A DNA stretch of 53,428 nucleotides from Thermoplasmatota archaeon (GCA_023487765.1 JAMDBW010000052.1:1-53428); one strand, 5' to 3'; numbered from the stretch's first letter, positions 11,856-34,994 are shown. A program made the numbers and translations. Notes: generated by a model not told the origin, from the letters alone.

Positions 11856-12951
11856 AACTGGTGATTTTTTCCTCCAGGATAGATACCGGTACGTCGTTTA
11901 TGCCAATCATCTTTGAAACGCCTTTCTTGTCGCCTCTTCCCACGATCTTCCCCTCCACTATTCCAAGAGTTTCAAGCCTCTTTACGGTCCTGTAGACCTT
12001 TGAACTTTCGCCGGCATCAACGCCGTACTGTTCGTCCACCACTCTTATTTCCTTTAGAACGCAGGTCATATCGGTGCTGGCTTCAGACTTGAGGCATCTG
12101 CATATTGCCAGTAATACGGCCAGTTCATCAGAATCAAGCTCTCCGAGTTTGCTCTCTGTAACGTATGGATTTATCATTGACTTTGCAGTGCGTACATCTT
12201 CGCTCCCCATGCGATCTCCGTTCCTGTACTGGCATGCGTATGCCGATTTCTGGAGGAGCTCTATTGCGACCCTCGCGCTTCCGAAAGGCTGGGCGATTTC
12301 CCCGATGTATCCCAGAATCTCCTGATCATATGATCCGTATTCAAGCGAAATCCTGGCTCTTTCTTCTATTATCCTGGTAAGTTCCTCTCCGGAATATCTG
12401 TTGAACAGGATTGTTGAGAAAACCCCGAGAGATTTTCTGTCCCTCTCGTTCATGTATACTGATGGATCCTCCATGGAGACCATTATGCTGGATATCGGGG
12501 TCCCATAGATTTCACTGGCTCTCAGGAGGTTGTATACACCGTCCCTGTCAAATTTTATTATATTCGTGGCTTCATCCATGATAAGTACGATGTTCCTGTC
12601 CTTCTCCTGGCTGATGCGCTTCATGGCCCTGAAAATGTCCGGATATGCGAGATTTTTTGTTCCGGTTATTCTCCCCAGCCTCGAGAGGGCATCGGCAAGC
12701 AGCAGCCTCATGCTTCCGAAGGAGAGGGCGTTTTCATACACCATGAGGAACCTCTTCTCTTCCCTGATAAGATACCGCATGGTGGAGGTTTTCCCGGTTC
12801 CGGAGTCGCCGAACGCCACAAGGTTGGAGCATATCCCGGCCTTCAGGGGCTCGAGCATGAGCTTTCTTACCGTGTCGATCTGGTTCTCTCTGAACCTGAG
12901 ATTCTGCGGAACATATGAAAAATCAAGCGGATCAGGGTTCTTTATTATCAA
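11830..12951 (-). CDS. cdc6: Orc1/Cdc6 replication initiator
   Basis: 373-aa ORF with AAA+ Walker A 'GDSGTGKTS' and Walker B 'IVLIMDEA'. The C-terminal winged-helix region is '..VYRTVKRLETLGIVEGKI'. The 3' end overlaps the convergent polymerase gene by 26 nt. Confidence 0.9.
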   Translation of the reverse strand: MIIKNPDPLDFSYVPQNLRFRENQIDTVRKLMLEPLKAGICSNLVAFGDSGTGKTSTMRYLIREEKRFLMVYENALSFGSMRLLLADALSRLGRITGTKNLAYPDIFRAMKRISQEKDRNIVLIMDEATNIIKFDRDGVYNLLRASEIYGTPISSIMVSMEDPSVYMNERDRKSLGVFSTILFNRYSGEELTRIIEERARISLEYGSYDQEILGYIGEIAQPFGSARVAIELLQKSAYACQYRNGDRMGSEDVRTAKSMINPYVTESKLGELDSDELAVLLAICRCLKSEASTDMTCVLKEIRVVDEQYGVDAGESSKVYRTVKRLETLGIVEGKIVGRGDKKGVSKMIGINDVPVSILEEKITSFMSRMHGE

Positions 12952-12989
12952 CAGAAAGAGATAACTGTGAAATGGTTATTATATTTGGG

Positions 12990-14669
12990 TCAGGCATTGC
13001 TGATGGATGCAAGGGTCGAAAATTCGGCATTTCGTTCGATACCCCATCTCTTCACTTTCTCTATGTCAACGCCATTCTTCCTGGCTACAGATTCTATATA
13101 TTTCAGCATCATGAATCCTCCGCCGGAAATTATTGATCCGGTGCCAAGCCTTGTCACGAAGTTTCCGCGGGAATCCCTGTAGCCATCTCTTGCAGCCATC
13201 TTCGCCAGGTGCCTGTATGAAGCGTAATAGACTGCGAGCTGGTTTTCCGTAAGCATATTCCTGTTCAGGCTCCGAGACTTTATCCTTCCAAGAGGAACGT
13301 TTACGAGAGGAGTGACTGTGAATTCGAATGGTCTTCCGCCTGCATAGGAGTTGCTGAGCCTGTTAATCATGGCTATGGTGTCCCATTCGTCCTCTGCAGT
13401 TTCACCCTCCTGGCCAACCTGAACAGTGAACGCCGGTCTCCAGTAGTTCATGGTCTCAACGTGGACACCCTGCCATACTATTTCCTGCCAGCTTCCGTCC
13501 GGGCCAATCCTGAGCGGCATGGTCTTGTTCGGCATGTGTTTCAGGGCCAGATTATCACTCCCGGTTTCCACACCTGTCTGGACGCCAATCCAGTTCGACG
13601 GACCGGCCCTGAGGATTCCGGATAGCTTCTCCATCATTTCCGGGTATGCGGCGGGTATTGAAATCCTGCCGTGCGTCGGATTGGCAGTTTCCACCCCCCT
13701 GATTGCGGTAACAGATCTGAACAGTTCCTCAAGTGCTTCCTCATTGGGGATGAACCTGTTCCCATGTTTGTAGCCGAATATCTCGTCAGAATGCAGCCAG
13801 GCATTGGTCAGGCCTGCGTTGGCATTTGTCCGGACCTCGCTGGTTATTCTGTCAAGGGAGTTATATCTCAAAGGTCTCAGCGTCACCTCACAGAAATCGC
13901 AGCCCACTCCACAGCCCCGCATAACCTCAACCATGCCCTTGTTGGCAGGTCCGGCTATTTCCGGTATGTCCTCAATTCTCGGATACGAGGGCCCGGCAAT
14001 GCCCCTTGTTATGAACAGGTCATCATTTTTCTGTATTCGCCTGAAGCTGCCGTCATAGGTAACGTATCCCCTCCGGAATACCGTGCCGTCTATGCTGCCC
14101 TCACTGATCTGTTCAAACAGCAAGTCGGCAATGTCATCAATTTCCCCCTGGACAATGTAATCAAAATTGTATTTCTCTATCTCATCTCTCAAGACAGTGA
14201 ATTCCCAGACTCCCGGACCGCCGACGACGAGTTTCGCTTTCTTTCCCGATCTGATGACATTGATCTTCCCGATAAGTGAATCCCACTCTTTCCTTACCCA
14301 TGCCATCATTTCTCCGCCGAAGAGTGCGTGATATGACATCGTGGTCGGGCCTATGCCAAGCGGATCCATGGTTGTAACTCCTATTATCTCTGTATCGTCG
14401 GTTATGAAGCGATCAAGGTAATCCTCGTGAGCCACGACGACTTCATTTCTTTGAAATTTTCTGAGCAGTGACGCTTCAAGCTTCCTCAGCCCGTAGGGGG
14501 CAAAGACGGCCTCGCCACCGGGATGTGAAGGCGGAAGAGAACCTCTGAGAAACCTGTATATCGGCGCCGGTATCGCTTTGCCGGGGGCACTCGGAAGAAA
14601 ATCCAGCAAAGGAAAATTCCGGTATTCATAGCTCAGGGTTGAATCGGAAACCAAAACAAATCGTGTCAC
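12990..14669 (-). CDS. Radical SAM protein with N-terminal B12-binding-like domain
   Basis: 559-aa ORF with a CxxxCxxC cluster in 'VEVMRGCGVGCDFCEV'. The N-terminal Rossmann-like region is typical of COG1032-type radical SAM enzymes. Confidence 0.8.
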   Translation of the reverse strand: MTRFVLVSDSTLSYEYRNFPLLDFLPSAPGKAIPAPIYRFLRGSLPPSHPGGEAVFAPYGLRKLEASLLRKFQRNEVVVAHEDYLDRFITDDTEIIGVTTMDPLGIGPTTMSYHALFGGEMMAWVRKEWDSLIGKINVIRSGKKAKLVVGGPGVWEFTVLRDEIEKYNFDYIVQGEIDDIADLLFEQISEGSIDGTVFRRGYVTYDGSFRRIQKNDDLFITRGIAGPSYPRIEDIPEIAGPANKGMVEVMRGCGVGCDFCEVTLRPLRYNSLDRITSEVRTNANAGLTNAWLHSDEIFGYKHGNRFIPNEEALEELFRSVTAIRGVETANPTHGRISIPAAYPEMMEKLSGILRAGPSNWIGVQTGVETGSDNLALKHMPNKTMPLRIGPDGSWQEIVWQGVHVETMNYWRPAFTVQVGQEGETAEDEWDTIAMINRLSNSYAGGRPFEFTVTPLVNVPLGRIKSRSLNRNMLTENQLAVYYASYRHLAKMAARDGYRDSRGNFVTRLGTGSIISGGGFMMLKYIESVARKNGVDIEKVKRWGIERNAEFSTLASISNA

Positions 14670-14877
14670 ATTTACCAGTCTCCATTAACCGATTTATTCT
14701 GAATTTGAATAAATATTTTACTGATTTCCGGACTGAAACAATGGATAGTTCAGTTGGCAAACTGTTTTCATGGTTTAGTTCCTTAATCCTGCAAATTAAG
14801 GCAAAATTCGCATAATCCGGAACGCACCGGTTTCCTGCCTGCGAAACTTTATTATAAAAAGATAAGTAGGGATTGAA

Positions 14878-15462
14878 ATGCTGCAGGCATCGTTTCTCAC
14901 ACTATTCTGGCCACTCGCGTCCAACGTTACATCAGGAAGCACACCCGGCACCGCTTCACAACTGGCAGGCACCAGTTTTTTTCTCGTACTGGTTGCCCTG
15001 GTGATTGCAAGAAGGGTGCTTGGCGGCGTTCGTGGCAGAATCTACAGCGAAAGGCGCGTTCTGATGATTCCCGTTATCTACATTCTTCTGACTGTTCTTT
15101 CCGTCGCTGCTCTAGGATACATTCACGAAATCATCCTTGGTACACTGGCTCTGCTTCCTGCCGGAGTTTTGTTCGGTTCAAAATTCGGGACAAAGGTTGA
15201 ATTTTTCTGGAAGAACGGGATGATATATTACAGGAGATCGCCAGTTGTCCTCATTCTGTGGCTGGGTTCGTTCATTGTCAGGGTTCTGCTTGAAACGATA
15301 TATCCCGGGAATCTGCAAGTCGAAATCGTTATTGATGCGGTTCTTTCCTTAACTGCCGGGCTTCTGCTGGGTGAGGCGATGAACATTCTTGGAAAGAGGA
15401 AGAAATTTAACGAGAATGCCCCTGATCAGAGCCAGCCGGAACCATTCATCATAAACCAGTGA
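14878..15462 (+). CDS. Integral membrane protein (about 4 TM), function unknown
   Basis: 194-aa ORF with several hydrophobic helices. It follows a 208-nt AT-rich intergenic region. Confidence 0.5.
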   Translation: MLQASFLTLFWPLASNVTSGSTPGTASQLAGTSFFLVLVALVIARRVLGGVRGRIYSERRVLMIPVIYILLTVLSVAALGYIHEIILGTLALLPAGVLFGSKFGTKVEFFWKNGMIYYRRSPVVLILWLGSFIVRVLLETIYPGNLQVEIVIDAVLSLTAGLLLGEAMNILGKRKKFNENAPDQSQPEPFIINQ

Positions 15463-15499
15463 TCAGGGGGAACCACTCCTCCTTTTCTGTTCTTTCTTT

Positions 15500-16135
15500 T
15501 CAGCATTTGAATCCCGGTACAATGAATTTCTCTATCTCGCTTCTCAGTCTCCTGCACGCGCTGAAAGGATCAGCAGACGAGAAAATGCTTGAGATGACTG
15601 CAACGCCGCTGATGCCGTACTGCATAATCTGCCCGACGTTGTCCTCATTTATGCCGCCAATGGCAAATATCGGGATATTCAGGATTTTCTTTGCCTCCTC
15701 AAGAACCGGGAGGTCACACAGCTCTGCACCCTCCTTCGACGTTGTCGGGAAGAACGATCCGAAAGCAACGTATGAAGCGCCGTCTTTCTGACCCTGCAGG
15801 GCCCGCTGTATGTCGCCATAGGTGGAATACCCTATTATCACGTCTCCGAGAATTTCCCTGACTTCGGCTATGGAAGGGTCATCCCTGCCGACATGGACGC
15901 CATCTGCATAGCATTCGCCAGCCAGGGCCGGATCATCGTCTATTATAAGGGGAACGTCATAATCCACAGTGATGCGCCTGATTCTCCTGGAAACCTCAAG
16001 CTTCACGCTGTATGGATTGATCTTGTCTCTGTACTGGAGCAAGTCTATGCCGGCATCAAGCGCCAGCTGAAGTTTCTGGAAGAATCCCTCGCCGTAATAG
16101 TCCGGTGTCAGCAGGTAAAGTCCCTGAAGCCTCAT
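15500..16135 (-). CDS. thiE: Thiamine-phosphate synthase
   Basis: 211-aa ORF with 'LLQYRDK', 'ADGVHVGRDD' and 'IFAIGGIN' motifs of ThiE. It is the last gene of the thi operon. Confidence 0.85.
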   Translation of the reverse strand: MRLQGLYLLTPDYYGEGFFQKLQLALDAGIDLLQYRDKINPYSVKLEVSRRIRRITVDYDVPLIIDDDPALAGECYADGVHVGRDDPSIAEVREILGDVIIGYSTYGDIQRALQGQKDGASYVAFGSFFPTTSKEGAELCDLPVLEEAKKILNIPIFAIGGINEDNVGQIMQYGISGVAVISSIFSSADPFSACRRLRSEIEKFIVPGFKC

Positions 16136-17205
16136 TTTAGTCTCCTGGAAACTCCATAATTTATTGCTTTCCAGTAATCATCATGCCCCGGGGGATCAAT
16201 ATTTTTCAGCATGCCGGAATCCTCTATTTTCCTGCCAAAGCTCCCCTCTTTCATGTATCCTGCAATTACGCTTTCTATCCCCTTCGCGTTCAGCCTTTTT
16301 ACGAAAGCCTCCGCCTTATCGGGTACAGCAGTTATCAGGAGAGTGCCTTCACTTATTGATCTGTATGGATTCATCCCGAACAGTTCTGATATCCTGGAGA
16401 CTTCCGGTGACAGGGGCAGTTTGTCCTTCTCAATGAGGATCCCGTTTCCCGAGGCATCCGCTATCTCGTAGAGAGCACCAAGGACGCCCCCCTCCGTGGC
16501 ATCATGCATGGAAGTTATGCCTCTGCTTCTCAGTCCGAATTTGGCAGCTTCCATAGACTCATCTACTGTAGTCATCCTGTAGAACATGGAATCCAGTTTC
16601 CTGAAATCGCCGGTACCGAGTTCTTTTTCAACGTACTGCGGGAACATTGCGGTAAGCATGGCTGCTGCCTCTATCGCCACAGTTTTGGTTATTATGACGG
16701 CATCACCGGGTCTCGACATTGCGGAAGTTATGTATTCATCCTCGCTCCCTGTTCCCATCATCGTGGCACCGCCGACCATCGGGTAGTCCGTTCCGTCATA
16801 CCTGGCAGTATGTCCTGTGACAACCGCAACTCCGTATTTCCTGCATTCCTCGTGCACTGTGTCCCACATTTCGCTTATCTCCCCGTCCTTTATGGAAACG
16901 GGCAGGTTCAGGTCTACGCTCAGGTACTCCGGTGGAAGGCCGGATGTGCAAAGATCGGAAGCTATGATATGAAATGCGAACCATGCGGCTTTATGCCATC
17001 CCAGAGACGGATGTATCGCGAACGGGTCTGTAGTCACGGCCATTACTCTTCCCGGAGCAATTCTTATCACTCCTGTGTCCACGCCGCTTTTTGGCGGCAC
17101 GATAACCTCACTTCTCTTTGCTCCGGTTTTCGGGAGTATGTATTTCTCGAAGTAAACCTTGGTTATTTTTCCAGCTTCATTTGCCATTTTTATTCCTCCA
17201 CCCAT
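16132..17205 (-). CDS. AIR synthase-related protein (PurM/ThiL/HypE superfamily)
   Basis: 357-aa ORF. Its N-terminal 'DTGV..'/'TTDPF' and 'ASDL' segments and its C-terminal domain are typical of the PurM-like fold. It overlaps thiE by 4 nt and thiD by 29 nt. Confidence 0.7.
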   Translation of the reverse strand: MGGGIKMANEAGKITKVYFEKYILPKTGAKRSEVIVPPKSGVDTGVIRIAPGRVMAVTTDPFAIHPSLGWHKAAWFAFHIIASDLCTSGLPPEYLSVDLNLPVSIKDGEISEMWDTVHEECRKYGVAVVTGHTARYDGTDYPMVGGATMMGTGSEDEYITSAMSRPGDAVIITKTVAIEAAAMLTAMFPQYVEKELGTGDFRKLDSMFYRMTTVDESMEAAKFGLRSRGITSMHDATEGGVLGALYEIADASGNGILIEKDKLPLSPEVSRISELFGMNPYRSISEGTLLITAVPDKAEAFVKRLNAKGIESVIAGYMKEGSFGRKIEDSGMLKNIDPPGHDDYWKAINYGVSRRLK

Positions 17206-17983
17206 GATTCAGGGAACCGAATCCCTTTCCCATGATCAGTGAGTTAATGATCGCGCCCTGGAGATATTCTCTCGCCATGGTGACGGAGGACACGAGATCA
17301 TTGCCCAGTGCGAGGAAGGAGGCAATGGCGGAAGAGTAAGTATCTCCGGTCCCGTGGGTGTTCTTTGTATCTATCCTCAGTTCCACGAATTCTCTGAAAC
17401 CGGAACCGTCGTAGAGGACATCTTCCACGTATTTCCCTGTGGAGTGTCCTCCCTTGATCAGGACCCTGCAGCCCGTATCCGCAAATATTTTCTCAGCAGC
17501 CTTTCTTGCATGGTCTCCTCGCGATATGCTTAAACCGGAAAGTATCTCGGCTTCAGGTACGTTCGGCGTGACGAGATCGGCTATCCCCAGCAGTCCCGAT
17601 TTAAGCGTCTCCACTGCGTTTCCATTCAGGAGTCTTGCACCGGTCTTGGACACCATTACGGGGTCTACGATCACGTTTTTCACGGAGTATTCAGTGAATT
17701 TTGAACGCACAGCATCTATGATCTCACCGGAATAGAGCATGCCGGTCTTGGCAGCATCAGCCCCTATGTCTGAAAGAACGGCATCCATCTGCTTTCCCAC
17801 GAAATCAGGATCCATAGGAAAAATTCCGGATACCTCAACGGAATTCTGGGCGGTCACTGCGGTGACGGCGGATGTTCCAAATACGCCCAGCGCAGTCATG
17901 GTTTTCAGGTCAGCCTGTAATCCGGCTCCTCCGCCGGAATCTGAACCGGCCACCGTAAGTACTACCGGAAGCCCTCTTTTCAT
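17177..17983 (-). CDS. thiD: Hydroxymethylpyrimidine/phosphomethylpyrimidine kinase
   Basis: 268-aa ORF. '[21 protein letters not shown]' and 'KGGH' are canonical ThiD (ribokinase-fold) motifs. Confidence 0.85.
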
Positions 17984-19218
17984 GCCAGGCTTACCCTCCC
18001 GGTTTCATTTCCCCTGATGAACCACACCACGGATCCGATGAATCCTATTGACCACATCATGGTTGCAAATATCATGTAATTCAGGGTTGAAAAGTTTACC
18101 AGCAGAAAGAGAGAAGCGATGTATATGCCATAAGCTATACCCCTGACGGAAGCGATGCCTCTCCCGCGCCATCCGGTGTCGAAAAGTTCGGGCTGCAGAA
18201 GTTCACGGGAAGCCCAGCCCAGTTCACTGAAGAACGAATTGACAAGTACCAGCACAACAAACAGCATCAGGGAGGATGAGAAGAACAGGTAGGGTATGAA
18301 CAGCGTCATTGACAGGAATCCTCCTGTGTATGCAAAAAGTGCAAGGAGTTTCCTGGGTACCCTGTCAATGAAGAAAATTGCGAGAATACCGGTCGCTGAC
18401 GTCCCCAGGCCTGACGAAAATGCTATCAGGCTTACGTACATGGGGAATTTGTACGGTCCCATAACAAAAGTCACCAGCGCGAAAGTGAGGACTATTGTGA
18501 TGGCGAATGACAGCAGGACGAGGAATTTCAGTATCCCCCTTGAATTGATTTCCGGTTTCGCTGCGACGGACCGGGAAACATACCTCCATCTTATGCTCTC
18601 CGGGATCCTCACTCTGGCGTAAACGGCTATAATAAGCCCGGCAACCGCCATTATCCCGAAAAGAAGCTTCTGGAGGTAAATATTGGCAGGAGTCAGGAGA
18701 AATACTCCTGAAAGGACTGCCACACCGATATTTGCAGAGTTTGACGCAAGGATCAGGACTTTGCCGCGATACCTTGCAGGGAACAGTTCTGCCATGAATG
18801 CCAGTGAGACGGTTTCTTCACCGCCGAATCCCATTTCCGCCAGAATAATTGATATGATGATCTCAAGAACGTTAGCGGAGAGGATTATGCCGGAGATTCC
18901 AACGGCCCCCATCACCATGGTTGTCATGAAGATCTTCTTCCTGCCAAACCTGTCTGCAAGGAATCCCATGAGTATGTTGCCAATCAGGAGGCCAGCCGGA
19001 GATGCGAGAAGGATGTAAGTTGTGTAATCCCGGGGAACTACGGGCCATTCAGTTACCAGTGGGGCAACAACCAGTAACATGCCCCAGACAAAGAAGCTCG
19101 TGACCATTGTCATCAGCATAAGTGAATGGGTTCTGGTCCACGTCATTCCATCAAGGGTTTTCCTGAGATCGCCGTAATTGTTGAACATGGACGGGTCGAC
19201 GGAATTAAGATCGCTCAT
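17980..19218 (-). CDS. MFS transporter (candidate thiamine/HMP-precursor transporter)
   Basis: About 12 TM helices and the MFS signature '[11 protein letters not shown]'. The ORF track starts at a TTG (19257). I prefer the ATG at 19218 ('MSDLNS..'), which has GGAGG 10 nt upstream. It is the first gene behind the TPP riboswitch. Confidence 0.75.
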
Positions 19219-24778: not shown

Positions 24779-24885
24779 GACGGACGGGTAAAGTCCTTGT
24801 AAAATAAATTGTCACCGGACTTGCAAATGCAGGAATTCAGACCTCAATAAGATTTATTAGGCAACATCAGGTTATATAGTCCAGT

Positions 24886-27441
24886 ATGGGAAAACTTACG
24901 GGTCTAATTCTGGGAGTTAGTGCTGCACTCTTCATGGCATACTACGTACTGGCTTCGGCCTATGTGCAGTTAACAGACTGGTTAAGTCCCGTATTGGGCC
25001 CGTCGTTTTCCCTAATGCTGTCGCTTCTGTACCTGCTCCTGGGAAATCCCGTGAATCATCCGGTTCTCTTCGCTGTGTGGATCACCGTGGGTGCCGTCAC
25101 AGGGATAGGGGCAAGGAGGGGCGGAAGAGCGGCAGGGGCTGCTTTCACCACTTATATGATTATCTGGTCATTCCTGTCACTGACAGTGATGTCCATGCTT
25201 CTCGGCGCCGGTCTTGGTTCTCCTTCGGGAACGGGGTTCGCAGGAGGCATCGGAGGGTTTCCGCCGCTTCCGCCCGGAACCAGCATATCATCTATTCTGA
25301 CGGAACCTCTTATGCAAAGGCTGATCCAGTTGTTTGGCATGATTGGAAGCCTGTCCGGATTAACCGGACTCCCGCTGACCAGCTATGGTTCCCCGGCTCT
25401 CACCGGTAGCGTCCTGACACCTGTTGCGGGCCTTATTCCGGGCATAATATCACTTTTTCTCCCTTACCTCATCTTAAACTTCGTGATACTGGTACTGACT
25501 GCATACTTCACGGGAAGGGTACTGCACCTCATCATTGAACCGCGGGGACAGAACGGAAACGGCGGGAATCACAATGGAAGGGAAAAGAAAAAATCGCAGA
25601 AAGTCAGGAAAGTCAGGGTGAAAAGAGTCAGGCAGGCACGCTATGCTATGTTCGTAGCATCCCTGTTCGTTTTCTCAGCCATTGCGCTTCAGCTGGGAAA
25701 TGCCGGATATGCCCAGATCGACTCTTCGGGACTGGCACACGCAGTACATTACAACTCGGATTCCGTAGCAGCAGGCTCGCCGGGAAACACTTCGGCAGAC
25801 ACTTACCTTAACCTGTTCAAGACCCTAAGCACCGTAGGCCCGAACACTGTCAATACAACGCGGATCGGAAACCAGACCCAGCTGTATTACTCTTCAGGCA
25901 TTGTGGGAACCTACGGGAACGTTTACAACACGTACGGATTCCTCGGTGAGTTAAACTCGACAACCGGGTGGGAAGCTTCACAGCAGGCTAAATCTTCCCT
26001 GTTCACAATAGTCGCGGTATCTGACAACTTAAGCTCCCTGATCAGCGGCATCTCGCAAAACGGACTGTCAGCCGGATCATCATCTACTGCAGGCAATTTC
26101 CTTGGAGCCATACCACGGCTGGTGATCATAAGTGCATATTCCGGAAATCAGGCGCAGACAGAGCCATCCGCCAACAGCGTGGCGGTACAGATCGTAAACG
26201 CAACTGGAGGACACAGCCTCATCAAGCTGTTATCGTTTACAGGCGGAAACGGGCTATTCGGTGCATCCGGCGGCAATGTATCCATATACATATATTCAGC
26301 TGATGCCAGTCTGTATCCCGCAGAAAACGGTCTAGCCGGGCAAATGAGCACCAGTTTCAACGGCAGTGGAATACTGGACCTTTTCAGGAACGGAATGTCT
26401 TCCGGATATCTCGTGCCGGGTTACACGCCAGCCAGCGTTGACGCGTCATTCTTCATTTCCGGAGTGATCAACGTCCGGAATCTCAGCCTTCCGATCCCCT
26501 CATTCTCCGGCGTCCAGCTTAACAGCAGCGTGGTAAAATACACCAATGTTGCATTCATGGGTGGATTTTTCAACAAAAACTATGTTTTACACTCATCTTC
26601 ATCCCGGCACAATATCAGCGCGGCCGCTATTTTCGATTACAAAGGAAATATTACTTTTGCAAATCCGTCCGTGGTATATGCACTGAGCCTGGCGTATCCG
26701 AACGAAACCTCCAGCGGCTCGGGATCGCTTTCAGGCATATACCGGATATTTACATTCACCACAATACCGGGAAACAACAACACGACCAGCGTGACTGGAA
26801 ATAACACAGTTATAGTGAAACCATACGGTTCAGCGATAAACCTGTCAAACCTGACCATTGAAACCAACGCGACGTTCCCTGCAAATATGCCGATCACGAT
26901 ATCGGTAAATATGACCAATAAAACCGCAGCCAGGATCATTACAACTGTCACGGTGAATGACAGCGACACTGTGACAAACTTGAGTATAAACCAAAGCAGT
27001 ATACTGTCTTCCTACAGTTCCTCTGTCATGTTGACATCCGGCAAAATTTCGTCGGGAAATATATCTTCACTTGGCCCGAATCAAAGTGTGCAGCTCAAAT
27101 TCGAGCTTTATTTTAAGAATCCGGGATCTTACGTTATCCTGAGCCCCATGGTCACATATACCATGAACAACAGAACTTTCACGGTTACCGGGAGTCCGCA
27201 GGTTGTTGCTATAGCCAACCCTCCCCTGATCACGAGCATAAACAATATGGAGAAAAACTCGGCAGCGGTAATATCAACGGTGATACATAACCGCATTCTG
27301 ACTGAACAGATATTCCCCGGCTTCTACGTGTTCGACCTGATACCTCTGCTGATAGTCCTGGTGGATATCCGCATAGAATACAAGTCATTCAGGAAATGGC
27401 TTATGCTGAGAAAAGGGCAGACGGGACAGCTACCACCGTGA
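24886..27441 (+). CDS. Large polytopic/surface protein: N-terminal multi-TM Gly-rich domain plus sequon-rich ectodomain plus C-terminal TM
   Basis: 851-aa ORF with about 5 N-terminal TM helices. A Lys/Arg-rich stretch is followed by a signal-like segment (..RYAMFVASLFVFSAIALQLGNAGYAQ). A long Ser/Asn/Thr-rich region has many NxS/T sequons. The C-terminal TM helix is FYVFDLIPLLIVLV. Confidence 0.6.
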   Translation: MGKLTGLILGVSAALFMAYYVLASAYVQLTDWLSPVLGPSFSLMLSLLYLLLGNPVNHPVLFAVWITVGAVTGIGARRGGRAAGAAFTTYMIIWSFLSLTVMSMLLGAGLGSPSGTGFAGGIGGFPPLPPGTSISSILTEPLMQRLIQLFGMIGSLSGLTGLPLTSYGSPALTGSVLTPVAGLIPGIISLFLPYLILNFVILVLTAYFTGRVLHLIIEPRGQNGNGGNHNGREKKKSQKVRKVRVKRVRQARYAMFVASLFVFSAIALQLGNAGYAQIDSSGLAHAVHYNSDSVAAGSPGNTSADTYLNLFKTLSTVGPNTVNTTRIGNQTQLYYSSGIVGTYGNVYNTYGFLGELNSTTGWEASQQAKSSLFTIVAVSDNLSSLISGISQNGLSAGSSSTAGNFLGAIPRLVIISAYSGNQAQTEPSANSVAVQIVNATGGHSLIKLLSFTGGNGLFGASGGNVSIYIYSADASLYPAENGLAGQMSTSFNGSGILDLFRNGMSSGYLVPGYTPASVDASFFISGVINVRNLSLPIPSFSGVQLNSSVVKYTNVAFMGGFFNKNYVLHSSSSRHNISAAAIFDYKGNITFANPSVVYALSLAYPNETSSGSGSLSGIYRIFTFTTIPGNNNTTSVTGNNTVIVKPYGSAINLSNLTIETNATFPANMPITISVNMTNKTAARIITTVTVNDSDTVTNLSINQSSILSSYSSSVMLTSGKISSGNISSLGPNQSVQLKFELYFKNPGSYVILSPMVTYTMNNRTFTVTGSPQVVAIANPPLITSINNMEKNSAAVISTVIHNRILTEQIFPGFYVFDLIPLLIVLVDIRIEYKSFRKWLMLRKGQTGQLPP

Positions 27442-28948: not shown

Positions 28949-30916
28949 ATGTCATCCTGCTATAGGGGAAAAATGTCAGGAAGGGATCTCAACAACTCGG
29001 GTTTCAGCACTTTCATTGCCGGTAATGAGGCTGAACTCGAGGCACATTTCTCTGGATTCAGTGCACTGAGAGCAGTTTCCTATGTTGTTTCAATAAAGTG
29101 GATTCTGGAGTTTCTGGAAAGAAATCAATTTGAAAGCATCGAGATCGTGGTGGGAAAGGAGGTTTCCGATCTAAACCCCGCCGAATTGCTTAAGGATGAG
29201 GTTGCAAGCGATAAGGGAAATCTTGCCTGTCAAATCCTCGGGATGATGGAGCAGGGAAGGTTGAAGATATACACCTCGGATCGTATTGTGCATTCCAAGT
29301 TCTACATTTTAACCGGCAGAGGGGCTATAAGGGTTATTCAGGGCTCAGCTAACCTGACCACGTCAGCGAGGAAAGGGAAACAGGTGAACTATCTCTGGAA
29401 GTGGGATCTGGAACCCGGAGCTGACAAGTCGCTTATTGAGAGATTCAACGCAGATTATGAGCTGCACAAGAAATATTGCTCTCTATTCATGCAGGATCTC
29501 CAGGATATGCTCAAGGAAGCAGGAGATGAAGATAGGGAAAGGGTGCTCAATAACTGGCTTGGAAGAAATGTTGAGCCACAGGAAATCGGGATAATGCCCA
29601 TGCTCACGCAGATGGCCACAGAGGTCCTGGTCGGTGACAGCGGCGAACCGGTATACCGGATGATGCTGCCTGCAGAACCATCAAAACGAAAACCCATAGA
29701 ACAGTTCCTCCGGCCCGTAAAACACGAAATAGAATCATCTCAAATAGTCTTCCTGAAAAAGGATTTCCTTAACAGCGAAAATCTGTTTGTCCCAATAATG
29801 CGGGTGGATTTTGAAAATCACAGAATAGTCTTCAACATCAGGGCCGAAAAAATCACAGTAGGTGATGCCACACCTCCCGGTGAGGAAGTGAACACATGTC
29901 TGGCCAATATTGAGGAGTACATCAAATCTATCGACATGGGCAAGACAAGGAACAGGACAATCAACAACATGACCAAGATGAGCGTATATGAAGGGCTGAT
30001 CTACTTCCTGTCATCACCTTTCCTGAACCAGTATATGAGAATAAAGAGGGCCAAGGTGGGAAGAGTCGATGAAAGGGGTCCGAGATTTCTTTTCATATCG
30101 GGAGGATCAAGCAACGGAAAGACCACTTTTATTAAGTACGCGCTGAAACTTCTGACGGGTAAAGACATCAATCCAATAGACAAATCAAATTTCAGGAAAC
30201 AGAATATTCTCACGGCAGCGGGGCTGGGCACGAATTTTCCCCTCGTTTTTGACGACGTACCTCCCCAGCGGCTGAATTCTTCTGATATGGAAACAACCAT
30301 CAAGAGTTACTGGGAAACCTGGTGGAATGGCCAGAGCATCTTCCCGACAATTATAGTCTCTTCAAATGCCAAGTCTACCAAGGAATGGCACCAGACACGT
30401 GTCAAGACTCTTAATTTCGATGTTCATTTTGAACCTTCAATGAAGGCCAGGGAGAAACTCAACGACATTTTCAATCAGCAGAATAGTATTTTTTCTGCGT
30501 TCGCTTCATATTATTTCACACATTTTAGTGAAGACATATCGGACGATGAACTTGAACATGGGAGAAGAACAATGCTGAGGTTATATGATTACGCCGGCAG
30601 ACAGGTACCGGAATATTTCCCAAAAGCGCCGGTGGAAACAATTTATGATCCCGACAGGCTAAAATGGCGTGAACTCATAGACCTTGGAAAGGTCAGCATC
30701 GTGGAAAAGAACGACTCGATGGAGTTAACATTTCTGGAGGGATTCAACCGATCCGATGTGGAGCACTATGCTGATTCCATCAGACACGCAAAACACCGAA
30801 TAGTCGGAAATACTATTATAATAGAAAGCCCGGAGGACTTTCGGAAGTGGCTGGGGCTGGAGGAGAATGCCAGTCCGGGAATATTTGAAAAACTGTTCAG
30901 GAGGAGGAACAGGTAA
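28949..30916 (+). CDS. PLD-family (HKD) nuclease domain fused to SF3/D5-P4-type P-loop NTPase
   Basis: 655-aa ORF. The N-terminus has a single HKD-type motif 'IVHSKFYILTGRGAIRVIQGSANLTTSA' (HxK...GSxN). The C-terminal half has Walker A 'FISGGSSNGKTTFIKYALKLLTG', Walker B 'FPLVFDDV' and an SF3 motif-C-like 'TIIVSSN'. An alternative start at 28973 sits about 35 nt downstream of a TATA-like 'TTTTTAAGTATAT'. Confidence 0.7.
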   Translation: MSSCYRGKMSGRDLNNSGFSTFIAGNEAELEAHFSGFSALRAVSYVVSIKWILEFLERNQFESIEIVVGKEVSDLNPAELLKDEVASDKGNLACQILGMMEQGRLKIYTSDRIVHSKFYILTGRGAIRVIQGSANLTTSARKGKQVNYLWKWDLEPGADKSLIERFNADYELHKKYCSLFMQDLQDMLKEAGDEDRERVLNNWLGRNVEPQEIGIMPMLTQMATEVLVGDSGEPVYRMMLPAEPSKRKPIEQFLRPVKHEIESSQIVFLKKDFLNSENLFVPIMRVDFENHRIVFNIRAEKITVGDATPPGEEVNTCLANIEEYIKSIDMGKTRNRTINNMTKMSVYEGLIYFLSSPFLNQYMRIKRAKVGRVDERGPRFLFISGGSSNGKTTFIKYALKLLTGKDINPIDKSNFRKQNILTAAGLGTNFPLVFDDVPPQRLNSSDMETTIKSYWETWWNGQSIFPTIIVSSNAKSTKEWHQTRVKTLNFDVHFEPSMKAREKLNDIFNQQNSIFSAFASYYFTHFSEDISDDELEHGRRTMLRLYDYAGRQVPEYFPKAPVETIYDPDRLKWRELIDLGKVSIVEKNDSMELTFLEGFNRSDVEHYADSIRHAKHRIVGNTIIIESPEDFRKWLGLEENASPGIFEKLFRRRNR

Positions 30917-30958: not shown

Positions 30959-31519
30959 ATGAAAAGCGGAATTACTGCAATATACAGGTTCAAGGTTGCA
31001 TTGAAGGGCAGACGAGGCATCTGGCGCCGCATAGAAATCAGGGGAGACCAGACACTTGCTGACCTGGACAGGATTATACGAATTGCCTTTAATCATGACA
31101 CATGGGATCACCTCGGGGAATTTTATTCCGGAAAGCCCTGGTATCGATCAGGTTATGGAGAAATCAATCCGAATGGAGGAGGCGAAGGGGCGAAGATCCC
31201 GATAGCCTCCTTAGGGTTACAGGAGGATGACAGGATAGGCTATGTATACGATTTTGGCTCCGAAATCCATCACTACGTCACTCTTGAGAGCATGTCGGAA
31301 AGTACGGATCCTGCAGCCAGATATCCCCTTATTGTATCACGAAACAATCCGAGGTACAAGTATTGTGTGGAGTGTGCGGCGTCCGGCAAGAAAAATGTCG
31401 CAACTCAGGTCTGTCTCGATTGCTCTACCGAAGATGGCTCTGAACCCGAATATATCTGTGAGGACTGTGGATATGCAGACAAGCATGAGGAACATTTTCT
31501 TGAAGATATTGTGTATTGA
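30959..31519 (+). CDS. MM3350-like (plasmid pRiA4b ORF-3 family) domain protein with C-terminal Cys-rich zinc finger
   Basis: 186-aa ORF. 'YRFKVALKGRRGIWRRIEIRGDQTLADLDRIIRIAFNHDTWDHLGEFY' matches the PRiA4_ORF3/MM3350 N-terminal signature. The C-terminus has CxxC-x12-CxxC-x11-CxxC-x5-HxxH. Confidence 0.7.
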   Translation: MKSGITAIYRFKVALKGRRGIWRRIEIRGDQTLADLDRIIRIAFNHDTWDHLGEFYSGKPWYRSGYGEINPNGGGEGAKIPIASLGLQEDDRIGYVYDFGSEIHHYVTLESMSESTDPAARYPLIVSRNNPRYKYCVECAASGKKNVATQVCLDCSTEDGSEPEYICEDCGYADKHEEHFLEDIVY

Positions 31520-31632
31520 GCCATTCATGACTCCGAAGAACGGTAGAGGTAATACCTTTTGGAAGGTTTATGAACAAGGCTTGAAATACTGCATTACACA
31601 TCATGTCACAGAAGGAGTAATTACGCCGATTC

Positions 31633-32826
31633 GTGTTTGCAACTACAGATTGGGAGGAATGCATCCTGGGCGATAACAAGAGACCGGACAGCAGGGAATC
31701 TAATTCGAGTTCTATAACCAGAGAGGACGTACCGAACTTACCAGTGATCAGGGAAATGATACAGAAGGACATCGACTACTCCCAGGCTTTATTCGAGTAT
31801 GCCCAGGAGTACTATGACAGGGAGTGCAGGCTGTATGCTTATGAATGCCCGGACAACACAGACCTCTCCGCCGAACTGCGCTATAAACAAATCTACTTAT
31901 GGTTCATCACCGAAAAGGTCCTGCCTTCCAGAGGTCGTACTGTTCTGGAGGAATTCGTGGAGAAATACATTGCCCCAAAAGATCCGGAGGTTGCAAAAAG
32001 GTTACTTCGGTCAAAGAGCATGATAAGGGGTTCCTTTAAGGTTCTCGACGTAACATATTACCCCTGTGTACTCGTGGATCATCTGGAATCCGGGAAAAGA
32101 TATCTTGCCGTTACCAAGATTCCTCCATCGCCACAGGCGAAAGAGACATTTCTCCCTGAGAAGGTAATAAAAGGAAAAATTCATCCATGGTGGGATAAGT
32201 ACTTCATTTTTGACGGGATTCTGACCAGGGAGCCAACGCGTGAAGAAATTGCCAGTCAAATGGGGTTCATCTTTGATCCCGGCATAATTATGGAGCGATA
32301 CGAGAGTGATCAGATCAGAAAATTTGAGTCAATATCGCTAAATCTTAAAACAACGCTCTCATCTGCGTTTAACAAATATCCGTCACAATGGGTTGACGGA
32401 ATGTGTTCGGCATCCGGTATCAGCATAAAGCAGGTAAGAACTAAACGAGACAAGATCGATGCTCTTGTTTCCAAGCTTGAAAATGGATATGCTGATTACC
32501 TTCTCAGGGAGAGATTCACGGAGAAGCAGATTGCTATCCTGGAAATGCTTCACAGAGGTGGCTGGGTCCTGAAATATGGTCAACTGACAAAACAATTTTC
32601 ATCGGAAACAACTTTCTGGTGGGTTGAGGATCCTCCAACATCTGATATCGGCGTTCTGCGATTGCATGGATTTATTGTAATCGGCAAACTCCCCGAGGGA
32701 GGAAAGCACTATAAGGTGGCTGTTGTTCCGGTTGAGTTAAGATCCACGGTCAAAAACTTCCTCACTGCCAGGGCAAAGTATCCATCACGTCATCTACGCT
32801 TGAGACCTACCGGGTCATGTCAATGA
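31633..32826 (+). CDS. Hypothetical protein (up to 397 aa)
   Basis: Long ORF on the same strand as its neighbours. The track start is a GTG, and the first ATG is at 31756 ('MIQKDIDY'). I recognise no catalytic motif. The C-terminal part (..EKQIAILEMLHRGGWVLKYGQLTKQF..) could be a wHTH. Confidence 0.5.
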   Translation: MFATTDWEECILGDNKRPDSRESNSSSITREDVPNLPVIREMIQKDIDYSQALFEYAQEYYDRECRLYAYECPDNTDLSAELRYKQIYLWFITEKVLPSRGRTVLEEFVEKYIAPKDPEVAKRLLRSKSMIRGSFKVLDVTYYPCVLVDHLESGKRYLAVTKIPPSPQAKETFLPEKVIKGKIHPWWDKYFIFDGILTREPTREEIASQMGFIFDPGIIMERYESDQIRKFESISLNLKTTLSSAFNKYPSQWVDGMCSASGISIKQVRTKRDKIDALVSKLENGYADYLLRERFTEKQIAILEMLHRGGWVLKYGQLTKQFSSETTFWWVEDPPTSDIGVLRLHGFIVIGKLPEGGKHYKVAVVPVELRSTVKNFLTARAKYPSRHLRLRPTGSCQ

Positions 32827-33106
32827 ACGGGACTTGAGCAAGGGTCATGAAAATACCGGAGAAACATAGTTTTCCCGCCCGCCAGTGAGTAGACTTGCAA
32901 ATAACTCACATAAATTGAGTGTGAAGAAAACCGCTCAGGGTCGGACTTGTTTTGACAGGCATTCAGGCAAATGACCTGCCCGTTCGTAGTAGCCATAACA
33001 TGGGGGCACAAGTCTTCAAAAAGATCGAAGAGTGTTGATCAGGCCATTGAGATGGTGACAGGCATATATGTAATTTCAGGGGATAGAACGGAAACATCCT
33101 GAGACA

Positions 33107-34994
33107 GTGGAACCCGTAACAAAGGAAAACAGGAATTTTATCGCAATCCCGGACTTAAGGGTATACTTGCCTCCCGCTGATTCGCAAACAATCGGGATAA
33201 ATGCCCGGTTTCAGGATATCATTATTTTGTACTGCGGACAAAGGGAGTGCATATTAAACTGGAAAGGATCAGATGATGGTGGGAGCATACCAAAGAATCC
33301 GGGAATGAGAGATTTTGTGGATCAAGTCAGGGAGAAGCTGGAAACGTATTCACCAGAGACGGTGAAGGATATTATCATAAGGTGGGCCATTAGCACCCCT
33401 CCGGGAAAGAGAATTGAATTTCTGGACAGACTGACCCACTTATCTCCGAAGGAAAACACGCACATTGGCGGCCCAGAACTCATTGATGAGATAAACGGGC
33501 TTGCAAAACGCGTCGAGAACGGAAATTACGGTGAGTACAGGGGAGAGGATGATTATCCCTACGGCGAGGATTTCAGCGATGAAAGTTGGGCTGATGAAAT
33601 CGACACATTCATGGAAGATGCCCGCTCCAATATGAAATCCGGCAGCTACGCGCTGGCTCGCGACGCATACAGTATGTTATTCAGGATTCTGGAATCAGGC
33701 GAAGAATCAGGTCACCTTCCCGGGAACTATGATCCTGCCAGTATGCTCAGTACAGACTTGAACGAAGCCCGCTCCTGTTACCTGTTGTCCGTCTATTTCA
33801 CGTCACCGCCTGAGATGCGTCCGGTGAACTTATATGAAGGTATGCAGCGATTTGCTACTCTTGTCGGGGATGATCTGAACCTCAGGTCAATGAAAAGTGC
33901 AGGATTAGAAATTCTTCCGGATTTCGACGAATTCCTGGAAGCGTGGATTGAACTGCTGAGAGGCAAAAACTCCACGTTCACCCGTTATCTTCTGCGCGAG
34001 GCTGTTATCTTATCCGGAGGCATAAATGCCATAGCGGAACTGGCACAAAAAACTGGTAGTGAACATCCCAGTGCATACATCGCGTGGATTGAGATGCTGG
34101 AGAAAGAAGGGAATTTCGTGGATATGGCAAGAGCAGCTGAGAAAGGACTTGCCAGTGTACCGGGCGATTATGTCAGGAGAGCTGAAATCGGAGAATGCCT
34201 GGTCAGAGCCGGAGAACATCTTGGCAACATAGATTTACAGATTTCCGGCTCCCACGAAGCATTTTATTCTTTTCCCTCTCTGAAAAATCTTTTGTCGTTA
34301 TTACTCATTGCAGAAAAGCAGAATGGCTACTATGGAGAGATCGAGGCAGCAATTAGCAGGATAGATTCGCTGATTCGAGATAAGAGGAAAAACAATGTGC
34401 CTGTATCAATGGAAGATGAGGAATCCTCGAAGTCTTTTGCAGGTGACAGTTTACTGGTTCAAACTTTTCTGCTCGGCGGGCGCTATGAGGACGCCTTTAA
34501 TTCCATTATTTCGAAACCTTCCGCTGGGCTGGAGCTATGGCGACAACCAAAAAGGACTCGTACTGGCATTCTTCCTGAAACTACTTGCAGGAGAGAAAGA
34601 TGCACATTCTGCATCTAACATCGAACGGCTATGGGAAGATTCTACAGGGCACACTGGCTTTTTATTCATGGATCAGGAAGGGATTGCCAAAAGATTCGGC
34701 ACGGCAATGGATAAGATATTTCGTTCTGCAAAGCTCTCAGACGATGAAAAAGTGAAGTACACAAAATGGTGCGTTGAAGAAACCGGCAAGAGGACTGACG
34801 CAATAGTCGGAGGGAAACACCGGAATAGTTACAATAAGGCCGCCGTCGTGCTTGTCGCATGTGCTGAAATGCTCAGTAAACATGGAGAGCGATCAGCTGG
34901 TAAGGAACTGGTGGAAGGATATCGTTCAAAATATAACCGCCATTCTGCGTTTCAGGGTGAACTTCGGAACGCTTTGAGGATCGCCAGTCTTTAA
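33107..34994 (+). pseudogene. Large helical-repeat protein (~629 aa) interrupted by a +1 frameshift
   Basis: Two overlapping ORFs (33107-34618 and 34395-34994) read as one protein if the frame changes near 34500-34520: ...GGRYEDAFNSIISK | LPLGWSYGDNQKGLVLAFFLKLLAGEK.... After that point the first frame becomes basic and Cys-rich nonsense (RQPKRTRTGILPETTCRRERCTFCI*). Confidence 0.55.

Follow-up and report, generated by a model that had tools for sequence, protein, structure and literature searches.

The closest described relative of the protein reported here is AgaP, the phospholipase D (PLD) effector encoded with a long-A prokaryotic Argonaute (pAgo) in the APAP defence system of Natrinema pellirubrum (Cheng et al. 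2024, mLife, PMC11442185). AgaP alone is toxic in Haloarcula hispanica, and its toxicity, which requires residues H105, K107, G157, S158, and N160, is suppressed by the pAgo; the pAgo-AgaP pair restricts plasmid DNA by means of the PLD centre, and AgaP boosts the pAgo-dependent protection from a virus with single-stranded DNA (PMC11442185). The two genes of the APAP operon are separated by 31-64 bp, the paper mentions near AgaP just 'a helicase-encoding gene', the words ATPase, Walker, and P-loop are absent from it, and the C-terminal part of AgaP is left undiscussed there (PMC11442185). Makarova 2009 does not mention PLD, and the orthogroups that Ryazansky 2018 places near pAgos include a PLD one, with no further detail. 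The gene studied here (positions 28949-30916, plus strand) lies in a 53,428-nt stretch of DNA of a Thermoplasmatota archaeon (GCA_023487765.1 JAMDBW010000052.1:1-53428), which we refer to as the window, and its product is predicted to join an N-terminal PLD nuclease domain to a P-loop ATPase in a single chain.

The initial annotation of this gene, made from the DNA sequence, knew of no such fused architecture. Results of our analysis indicate that the fusion is a conserved family represented in Pfam (PF27394) and that its haloarchaeal branch is the experimentally studied AgaP (PMC11442185). The window protein can be aligned with AgaP of Haloferax over the full length (27% identity, E 2e-50) and with AgaP of Halomontanus in both the C-terminal half (33% identity, E 1e-58) and the PLD part (28%, E 2e-8) in BLASTP comparisons. 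In the joint alignment, its identity to AgaPs is 26-28%, the AgaPs keep G385, G390, K391, D435, S472, N473, and R484 of the ATPase half (numbering of the window protein), and the H, K, S, and N residues of the PLD site are conserved in the N. pellirubrum protein (NpAgaP). Because of this full-length homology and the retention of the ATPase residues, the characterised AgaP, as judged from the alignments, shares the PLD and ATPase architecture of the window protein. NpAgaP is encoded by an intact 717-aa open reading frame (ORF) of NC_019963.1 (locus L015, 6966-9119), with H105, K107, G157, S158, and N160 as published. The RefSeq annotation is limited to its C-terminal 375 aa ('hypothetical protein') and, in the PLD part, to two small ORFs in antisense direction.

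Our literature searches on PLD, superfamily 3 (SF3) helicases, and defence, and on follow-ups of APAP, found nothing past Cheng et al. 2024; SF2-driven PLD nucleases are known, and a PLD nuclease on an SF3/D5-like motor was not found. The ATPase half of AgaP and the large pAgo-free clade of single genes thus appear to be unreported.

Domains and motifs of the fusion protein

The fusion gene is a complete ORF in the ORF listing of the window, with exactly the bounds given by the initial annotation, and all five motifs quoted there (HSKFYIL, GSANLT, GGSSNGKTT, LVFDDV, and IIVSSN) translate as placed. The true start is probably the ATG at 28973 rather than position 28949, because the near-identical database proteins P0001 and P0002 (647 aa) begin at window residue 9 and a sequence AGGGGA is present about 5 nt 5' of the ATG at 28973. 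Six-frame translation of the window gives 38 ORFs with a length of 200 aa or more; the HxK...GSxN pattern occurs in one of them, the fusion ORF, and no other ORF combines it with a Walker A motif. The features of the gene and its immediate downstream neighbour are as follows.

28949..30916, plus strand: whole PLD-ATPase fusion ORF, 655 aa (likely start 28973, giving 647 aa).
29003..29473, plus strand: N-terminal PLD-fold nuclease domain, residues ~19-175, predicted from the structure model, Foldseek, PLDc_2, and RE_NgoFVII in homologues.
29291..29299, plus strand: HxK dyad, H115 and K117, invariant in the homologue and AgaP alignments and equal to NpAgaP H105/K107.
29291-29311, plus strand: translated motif HSKFYIL, residues 115-121.
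29342..29359, plus strand: GSANLT, residues 132-137, GSxN half of the PLD site; S133 and N135 are invariant; equal to NpAgaP G157/S158/N160.
29474..30070, plus strand: helical linker (residues 176-230), beta-rich middle domain (~235-304), and two long helices (311-373), from the modelled secondary structure.
30071..30433, plus strand: P-loop ATPase core, residues 375-495, probably SF3/D5-like (Foldseek; weak DUF5906, DUF927, and PPV_E1_C matches; PHROG 'DNA primase').
30101..30127, plus strand: Walker A GGSSNGKTT, residues 385-393; G385, N389, G390, K391, and T393 are invariant.
30242..30259, plus strand: Walker B LVFDDV, residues 432-437; D435 and D436 are invariant.
30302..30328, plus strand: KSYWETWWN between Walker B and motif C, putative B' segment; K452, W455, E456, and W459 are invariant.
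30350..30367, plus strand: motif C/sensor 1 IIVSSN, residues 468-473; N473 is invariant.
30398..30400, plus strand: R484, candidate arginine finger, invariant, 11 residues past the motif C Asn.
30440..30868, plus strand: C-terminal helical region and small alpha/beta domain, residues 498-640, from the alignment and models; putative function discussed below.
30959..31519, plus strand: PRiA4_ORF3-domain gene (context), 43 nt 3' of the fusion gene; the linkage is kept in close Thermoplasmata relatives only.

The N-terminal residues that would form the nuclease site are strictly conserved. All of 25 aligned full-length homologues (32-80% identity) have H115, K117, S133, A134, N135, and T137, and H115 and K117 are invariant also in AgaPs; the gap from K117 to G132 in the window protein is 14 residues. 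The window protein matches Pfam PLDc_2 below threshold (residues 73-141, E 1.3e-3, 19 bits vs. gathering 27), and the related models RE_NgoFVII and Tyr-DNA_phospho match 16 (best E 3.9e-8) and 8 (best E 2e-7) of the 25 family members, respectively. The search of the Protein Data Bank (PDB) with Foldseek and the full-length AlphaFold model (mean pLDDT 82.1) as query indicates similarity of the PLD part to the R-protein of NgoAVII (E 1.1e-7; 4rct and 7clg are among the top PLD matches), SauUSI (E 1.6e-7), Nuc (1byr, E 3.9e-5, TMt 0.64), and FAM83 PLD-like domains and many TDP1 chains (E 8e-5 to 1.6e-3). The structural match to SauUSI is best explained by the common PLD domain; neither SF2 Pfam domains (DEAD/ResIII, Helicase_C) nor Rep or HUH Pfam matches were found in the window protein or its homologues. 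NCBIfam gave zero matches for the window protein.

Judging from the model and these profile matches, the N-terminal domain is a PLD-fold nuclease with one HKD-type motif, as originally annotated. A single PLD domain per chain is seen in both the Pfam matches and the model, and one HKD copy can be read from the sequence. In Nuc and BfiI, there is likewise a single motif per chain, and the full catalytic centre takes two chains. By analogy to these enzymes, the presence of one HKD-type motif per chain implies that a complete active site of the window protein would need two chains. Metal-independent cleavage of DNA, as in other PLD nucleases, would be expected of it, and the genetics of AgaP lends this indirect support (PMC11442185).

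The conservation of H, K, and the Asn of GSxN, on which the initial annotation had made its reading depend, is accompanied by that of the ATPase motifs: G385, N389, G390, K391, T393, D435, D436, N473, and R484 are invariant in the same 25 homologues. S472 is conserved in at least 90% of them and is invariant in the AgaP alignment. The core of about 110 residues has Walker A after strand 1, Walker B LVFDD, motif C SSN, and an Arg 11 residues further. Such a layout of Walker A, Walker B, SSN motif C, and Arg at +11 is that of SF3 ATPases. Further invariant residues are scattered in the C-terminal region (DDEL 532-535, R539, Y546, R551, P554, F557, W573, K615, G620, and W634), and residues 498-640 are presumed to be a DNA-binding or oligomerisation domain.

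When residues 230-655 were modelled alone (pLDDT 83.5, pTM 0.81), the best PDB match was Cch of SCCmec (5dgk, E 3e-6, 387 aligned columns), followed by the primase-helicase of SaPI5 (7ola, E 2e-3), E5 of MPOX (8wh3, E 4e-3), and PrimPol of African swine fever virus (ASFV; E 8e-3), and, more weakly, by the C-terminal region (CTR) of NrS-1, NS1 of parvovirus B19 (B19V), and PriRep1. Classical AAA+ proteins (Vps4, Hsp104/ClpB, p97) rank after the D5/DUF927-type helicases, with lower scores and probability. Cch (1.9e-6) and ASFV PrimPol are also the non-PLD matches of the full-length model, and the linker, middle domain, ATPase, and C-terminal domain align with the N-domain/ATPase/C-domain layout of Cch. 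The viral structure library BFVD yielded 49 matches at E < 1e-3, chiefly TOPRIM/primase-helicases, DUF927, NrS-1-type helicase domains, and VirE, with D5-ATPase-helicases and the large T (LT) helicases of polyomaviruses and adomaviruses also prominent.

Sequence profiles are less specific. AAA_16 matches 21 of the 25 members (best E 4.6e-5), and ATPase_2 and AAA_22 are also frequent over the P-loop, but in the window protein AAA_16 spans residues 369-405 only, that is, the P-loop itself. DUF5906 matches 8 of the 25 members (best E 0.011), DUF927 and PPV_E1_C one member each (0.0096 and 0.1), all three with E-values far removed from significance in Pfam, and PHROG 'DNA primase' families match at E ~1.5e-3. 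Alignment of the C-half profile with P4 alpha by hhalign, a weak test with a single-sequence template, covered 27 columns round Walker A (probability 3.6%). When the protein and the family profile were searched directly against PDB sequences, only Walker A noise emerged (FtsE, E 0.12, and a chance match to PTS IIA), and no ABC signature motif is present in the window protein.

The fold and the motifs make SF3/D5-like the best-supported class for the P-loop half, and we consider this assignment likely; low TM-scores to Cch (0.27-0.31) and a model in which the putative B' segment is helical keep it short of proof. The D5/P4-type SF3 ATPase of the initial annotation is thus upheld as the closest class at the level of fold and motifs, in preference to ABC and classical AAA+ ATPases, and is not upheld at the level of Pfam, where no SF3 model reached the threshold.

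Family, Argonaute linkage, and genomic neighbourhoods

The PLD and ATPase fusion is a conserved family and is not unique to the window. A word-indexed search gave 62 relatives, nearly all of 640-680 aa and with more than 93% query coverage; Thermoplasmata relatives are 60-99% identical to the window protein and bacterial ones (Elusimicrobia and others) 32-39%. In an exhaustive search of 1.84 billion cluster representatives (50% identity), at least 431, mostly full length, matched at E <=1e-3, and 110 at E <=1e-30. Close relatives come from metagenome-assembled genomes (MAGs) of Thermoplasmata or Thermoplasmataceae. Most of the 48 loci found in a genome scan belong to MAGs of Dehalococcoidia and Elusimicrobia, and others to Thermoplasmata, Methanoperedens, Ignavibacteriales, Gemmatimonadaceae, and further groups. 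This occurrence is patchy across distant phyla, in a manner resembling horizontal transfer. No homologue was found in 50,697 phage records.

In the precomputed annotation, PF27394 (Aq_aa27) is assigned to P0001 (99% identical, residues 9-655) and to 57 of the 61 other homologues, with four having none on record; by proxy of P0001, the window protein very likely belongs to this family. The NCBI label of the family members is 'phospholipase D family protein'. The Pfam name probably derives from a split, degenerate copy on plasmid ece1 of Aquifex aeolicus (24782-26184, minus strand), in which the PLD fragment (E 1e-9 with the family profile) and the P-loop fragment (E 5.5e-6) lie in separate ORFs. 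A literature search on 'aq_aa27' returned accidental string matches only. Swapping of the effector domain within the family was considered and dropped, as the 680-760-aa relatives matched mainly via the C-half still have PLD domains. Two proteins of about 400-420 aa (P0141 and P0149) contain the ATPase and C-terminal domains without PLD, preceded by unrelated N-termini of about 100 aa, and may be fragments or true nuclease-less variants.

Linkage to pAgo genes was seen in haloarchaea. Of the 29 plasmid records matched by tblastn, 22 are haloarchaeal megaplasmids, and in Haloferax alexandrinus, Salinigranum marinum, Halomontanus rarus, and Natrinema pellirubrum the family gene is directly 3' of a gene encoding a 'Piwi domain-containing protein'. 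In Haloferax alexandrinus and Salinigranum marinum, the AgaP gene is followed by a trio of UvrD, PD-(D/E)XK, and helicase genes, and in the pAgo-less plasmid locus of Haloplanus sp. GX21 (L013) the trio lies just 5' of the AgaP-like gene. The trio is AddAB-like (UvrD-like helicase, PD-(D/E)XK nuclease, and large ATP-dependent helicase; L010 10091-16505, L014 10160-16580, and L013 1-6148) and is found beside AgaP genes of haloarchaea whether or not a pAgo is present. A divergent neighbour of the AgaP-like gene in L013 (6148-7278, minus strand) encodes a 376-aa hypothetical protein that weakly matches the haloarchaeal pAgo profile (E 1e-5) and could represent a short pAgo or the relic of one.

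Outside haloarchaea, the pAgo hidden Markov model (HMM) gave zero matches, with none within 10 kb in 50-odd non-haloarchaeal loci, and the 53-kb window contains no Piwi-like ORF by either Pfam on large ORFs or the pAgo HMM. All-against-all clustering of the neighbours revealed no conserved partner apart from the four pAgo loci, and among 135 neighbour ORFs of 41 non-haloarchaeal loci no Pfam family was seen more than three times. The window copy and the 50-odd non-haloarchaeal copies examined are therefore solitary, without a conserved partner. Two features of APAP, linkage to pAgo and a split PLD motif (~50 residues from HxK to GSxN), are absent from the window gene.

In bacteria, the copies occur as single genes with toxin-antitoxin pairs on their flanks (HicAB, Phd/ParE, TacAT, MNT/HEPN, and BrnT modules), and lone insertions between housekeeping genes occur, as in Dehalococcoidales locus L007 (7486-10019), where the gene and a HicAB pair lie between argJ and argB. 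In this and two further Dehalococcoidales MAGs (L059 and L045), which share the aminotransferase neighbour of L007, the family gene adjoins arginine-biosynthesis genes. A type IIG restriction-modification gene is directly upstream in two loci, and DRT-, ZorD-, and DpdE-like neighbours were found elsewhere. In the Thermoplasmata relatives L005 and L006, the gene lies amid genes for a PLD-SNF2-DUF3427 protein, Fic, CcdA, and DUF234 ATPases. The region 11979-18305 of these two loci, with three paralogous ATPase_2/AAA_14/DUF234 genes round that of a 1038-aa PLD, SNF2 helicase, and DUF3427 protein, forms together with Fic and CcdA a dense defence-like island.

The window itself is ordinary chromosomal DNA from a Thermoplasmata archaeon, in which Pfam searches of large ORFs identified arginyl-tRNA synthetase, family B DNA polymerase, a Ta1207-family protein, an eRF1-like protein, a PALP-family pyridoxal-phosphate-dependent enzyme, and a GHMP-family kinase. 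The G+C content of the gene region (0.44-0.46) does not clearly differ from that of the window, and the notion of a compositional island was dropped on this ground. The repeats beside the fusion gene are short and at chance level, and include neither iterons nor terminal or notable inverted repeats.

Downstream of the fusion gene (30959-34994) are genes for a 186-aa PRiA4_ORF3 protein (E 4.8e-18) with a zinc-ribbon-like C-terminal tail, a 397-aa protein without Pfam match, and a 503-aa protein with a faint tetratricopeptide repeat (TPR) match. PRiA4_ORF3 was rejected as a functional partner: synteny of its gene and of the 397-aa gene after it is limited to relatives with at least 67% identity, and the PRiA4_ORF3 gene is absent beside the 60%-identical Thermoplasmata copies and all bacterial copies. 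A similar pair of a 436-aa PRiA4_ORF3 protein and a 530-aa TPR protein is encoded 6 kb upstream of the homologue in L005 and L006, and PRiA4_ORF3 with TPR looks like an independent module travelling in the same variable regions. The 503-aa ORF (33107-34618) overlaps by 224 nt, in a different frame, a 199-aa ORF (34395-34994); this could be one longer gene split by a frameshift or an error of sequencing, or else the two ORFs truly overlap, and L001, the 94%-identical relative, contains no homologue of either. Elsewhere in the window, an 851-aa protein (24886-27441) with N-terminal transmembrane segments, a long Ser/Thr/Asn-rich region of N-x-S/T sequons, and no significant Pfam match is probably a surface glycoprotein, conserved in L001. 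A 1252-aa ORF on the minus strand (45920-49678) has no Pfam family at E <=1e-3.

Proposed function and alternative explanations

On balance, we think it probable that the fusion protein is a single-gene, ATP-gated, oligomerisation-dependent DNA nuclease that serves in defence against invading DNA, such as that of plasmids and viruses. An ATP-driven, oligomerisation-dependent DNA-cleaving machine, as suggested in the initial annotation, is still the best mechanistic reading of the fusion. Each chain would contribute half of a PLD active site, and cleavage would require the pairing of two N-terminal domains, like in Nuc and BfiI. The C-terminal two-thirds resemble in fold the self-loading replicative helicases of mobile elements, with an N-domain, an SF3/D5-like core, and a C-terminal domain. 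ATP-dependent assembly of a ring or other oligomer on DNA would bring the PLD domains together and in this way license cutting, and the motor may also translocate on or unwind its DNA substrate. In haloarchaea, the long-A Argonaute is known to restrain the toxicity of AgaP and might in addition direct it. Because there is no partner in the solitary clade, its members would have their own target recognition and autoinhibition, presumably located in the middle and C-terminal domains and in the ATPase switch.

Several observations weigh against this proposal. AgaP alone is toxic, and therefore a solitary homologue needs a restraint that the proposal leaves unexplained; the functional evidence comes from AgaP, and the pAgo-free members are known from sequences and models only. 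Ordinary housekeeping functions (ArgJ, ArgB, aminotransferase, tRNA synthetases) account for many of the neighbours in bacteria, which makes the enrichment in defence islands anecdotal. PADLOC has no model for the fusion family and gave only a weak match to the ZacB PLD (E 0.022). None of the SF3 Pfam models reached the threshold across the family, so that SF3 membership is unsupported at the level of sequence profiles. The conserved KSYWExWW segment sits at the position of SF3 B' but is modelled as a helix and not as a beta-hairpin, which makes the translocase or helicase activity uncertain.

Since the C-terminal half is structurally closest to helicases that replicate mobile elements (Cch, SaPI5 Rep, P4/D5-like primase-helicases, and NS1 of parvoviruses), the protein could also be the replication initiator of an unrecognised mobile element, with PLD replacing HUH as a site-specific nickase, via a covalent phospho-histidine intermediate, and the helicase half unwinding from the nick. 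A nuclease joined to SF3 is indeed the Rep architecture, PLD nucleases such as BfiI and TDP1 act via covalent intermediates, and copies reside on haloarchaeal megaplasmids, on an Arcobacter plasmid beside parAB, and, degenerate, on Aquifex ece1. That Arcobacter plasmid, however, has its own Rep and DnaB-like helicase. The absence of the family from the phage records, the lack of consistently adjacent integrase, capsid, or other mobile-element genes, the lone insertions such as that at argJ/argB, and the lack of iterons and of terminal or notable inverted repeats beside the window gene, together with the toxicity and the immune role of AgaP, make a replication initiator very improbable. Only a little less improbable is a DNA-repair enzyme, in which a TDP1-like phosphodiesterase and a motor would clear covalent protein-DNA adducts or blocked ends, e.g., trapped topoisomerases. 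It would agree with the Tyr-DNA_phospho matches, with TDP1 structures among the Foldseek matches, with the name 'tyrosyl-DNA phosphodiesterase' of several AgaPs in RefSeq, and with the UvrD and AddAB-like helicase-nucleases encoded next to haloarchaeal copies; titles in the literature tie pAgos to tolerance of topoisomerase inhibitors. TDP1, however, has two HKN motifs per chain and the family one, RE_NgoFVII and the restriction nucleases NgoAVII and SauUSI match more widely and strongly, and the occurrence is sporadic and not lineage-wide. Also the PLD-dependent toxicity of AgaP and its plasmid restriction speak against housekeeping repair.

The suppression of AgaP toxicity by pAgo raises the question of whether solitary genes act in trans, their pAgo or other sensor being encoded at another locus of the same genome, since a partner would explain how the protein is tolerated; they would in that case be ordinary AgaPs whose genes have become separated from that of the partner. 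The L013 plasmid, where the AgaP-like gene adjoins only the 376-aa ORF weakly similar to pAgo, is consistent with this. The window and the surroundings of the non-haloarchaeal copies, however, are devoid of Piwi-like and pAgo genes over the ranges given above, the solitary clade far exceeds the pAgo-linked one in size and taxonomic breadth, and the AgaP-specific acidic PLD insertion of about 50 aa is absent in the window protein; we regard a trans-acting Argonaute effector as unlikely. Another alternative concerns the motor class only, namely, that the P-loop belongs to a STAND (signal transduction ATPases with numerous domains)- or origin recognition complex (ORC)-like or other non-SF3 NTPase serving solely as a nucleotide switch, its D5 likeness being that of ASCE (additional strand, catalytic glutamate) ATPases in general. 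AAA_16, ATPase_2, and AAA_22 are the commonest Pfam matches of the P-loop, the TM-scores to Cch are low, and hhalign aligns P4 alpha at Walker A only. Yet AAA_16 covers nothing but the P-loop in the window protein, the best PDB matches of the C-half, and the only ones to reach significance, are D5/DUF927-type helicases, with classical AAA+ less probable, the compact core with its SSN motif C and the Arg 11 residues later fits SF3, and ABC ATPases are disfavoured by the missing signature motif and by an FtsE match confined to Walker A; a non-SF3 switch is therefore rather unlikely.

Returning to the ATP-gated defence nuclease, its wider form is that a ring motor of the SF3/D5-like, replicative-helicase type was co-opted by cellular immunity and gates a half-site PLD nuclease in one chain, and that the solitary clade is an Argonaute-independent single-gene defence across Bacteria and Archaea; we put this forward tentatively, as a possibility somewhat short of probable. 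AgaP has been studied solely as a PLD nuclease, and the conserved Walker A and B motifs, sensor Asn, and Arg predict its control by ATP, which bears on how long-A pAgos handle double-stranded targets. If the proposal is true, AgaP would be an ATP-driven motor-nuclease, and this would explain the destruction of double-stranded plasmid DNA by a pAgo unable to unwind the duplex. The family comprises hundreds of sequence clusters, and its pAgo-free clade, known from Dehalococcoidia, Elusimicrobia, Thermoplasmata, Methanoperedens, and other groups, is a candidate for a single-gene defence system that PADLOC lacks. SF3/D5 motors would then join SF1, SF2, HerA, SMC, and STAND as engines of defence nucleases, and a replication module of mobile elements would have undergone exaptation by the host.

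Comparison with known systems

In DUF4297-HerA and Sir2-HerA, an effector nuclease is placed on an oligomeric ring ATPase, which is the same logic as that proposed here, with HerA being FtsK-like and separately encoded. Rep proteins of the HUH and SF3 type have the nuclease N-terminal to the SF3 motor in one chain, the nuclease being HUH and the role replication. No homology of the window nuclease to the HerA-partner or HUH nucleases was seen, with no test aimed at this comparison.

With Nuc, BfiI, and NgoFVII, the window protein shares the predicted PLD fold and one HxK...GSxN motif per chain, which implies a dimer-formed active site. In contrast to the window nuclease, which is carried on an ATPase part of about 450 aa, these enzymes are ATP-independent and either stand alone (Nuc) or are fused to a recognition domain (BfiI).

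The dependence of a PLD nuclease on an NTP-hydrolysing DNA motor, in a restriction or defence role, is common to SauUSI, PbeA, the DUF3427-type fusions of PLD and SF2, and the two-component NgoAVII/CglI systems, and the PLD domains of this group (4rct, 7clg) are the top structural matches of the window protein. Its predicted motor, however, is a ring P-loop ATPase of the D5/Cch type and not a two-lobed SF2 helicase, it is located C-terminal to the nuclease, the whole chain having about 650 aa, and no B3-like or SRA-like recognition domain was detected.

Cch, SaPI5 Rep, P4 alpha, poxvirus D5/E5, and ASFV PrimPol provide the best fold matches for residues 230-655, and the Walker A form GxxxNGK[ST]T, the SSN motif C, and the downstream Arg are the same; profile similarity is below threshold and TM-scores are about 0.3. 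Unlike in those proteins, a nuclease occupies the place of the primase or origin-binding module, and the window gene is outside any mobile-element replication module.

AgaP differs from the window protein in two traits of Natrinema-type proteins that the window protein lacks, an acidic stretch of about 50 aa inserted after HxK and ahead of GSxN and a long acidic linker, and in the adjacent pAgo gene, which is missing beside the window gene and the non-haloarchaeal relatives examined. Even at the low identity of these proteins, the homology extends over the whole length, with the same order of PLD domain, linker, middle domain, P-loop ATPase, and C-terminal domain and with conservation of HxK, GSxN, the Walker A Lys, the Walker B Asp, the motif C Asn, and R484.

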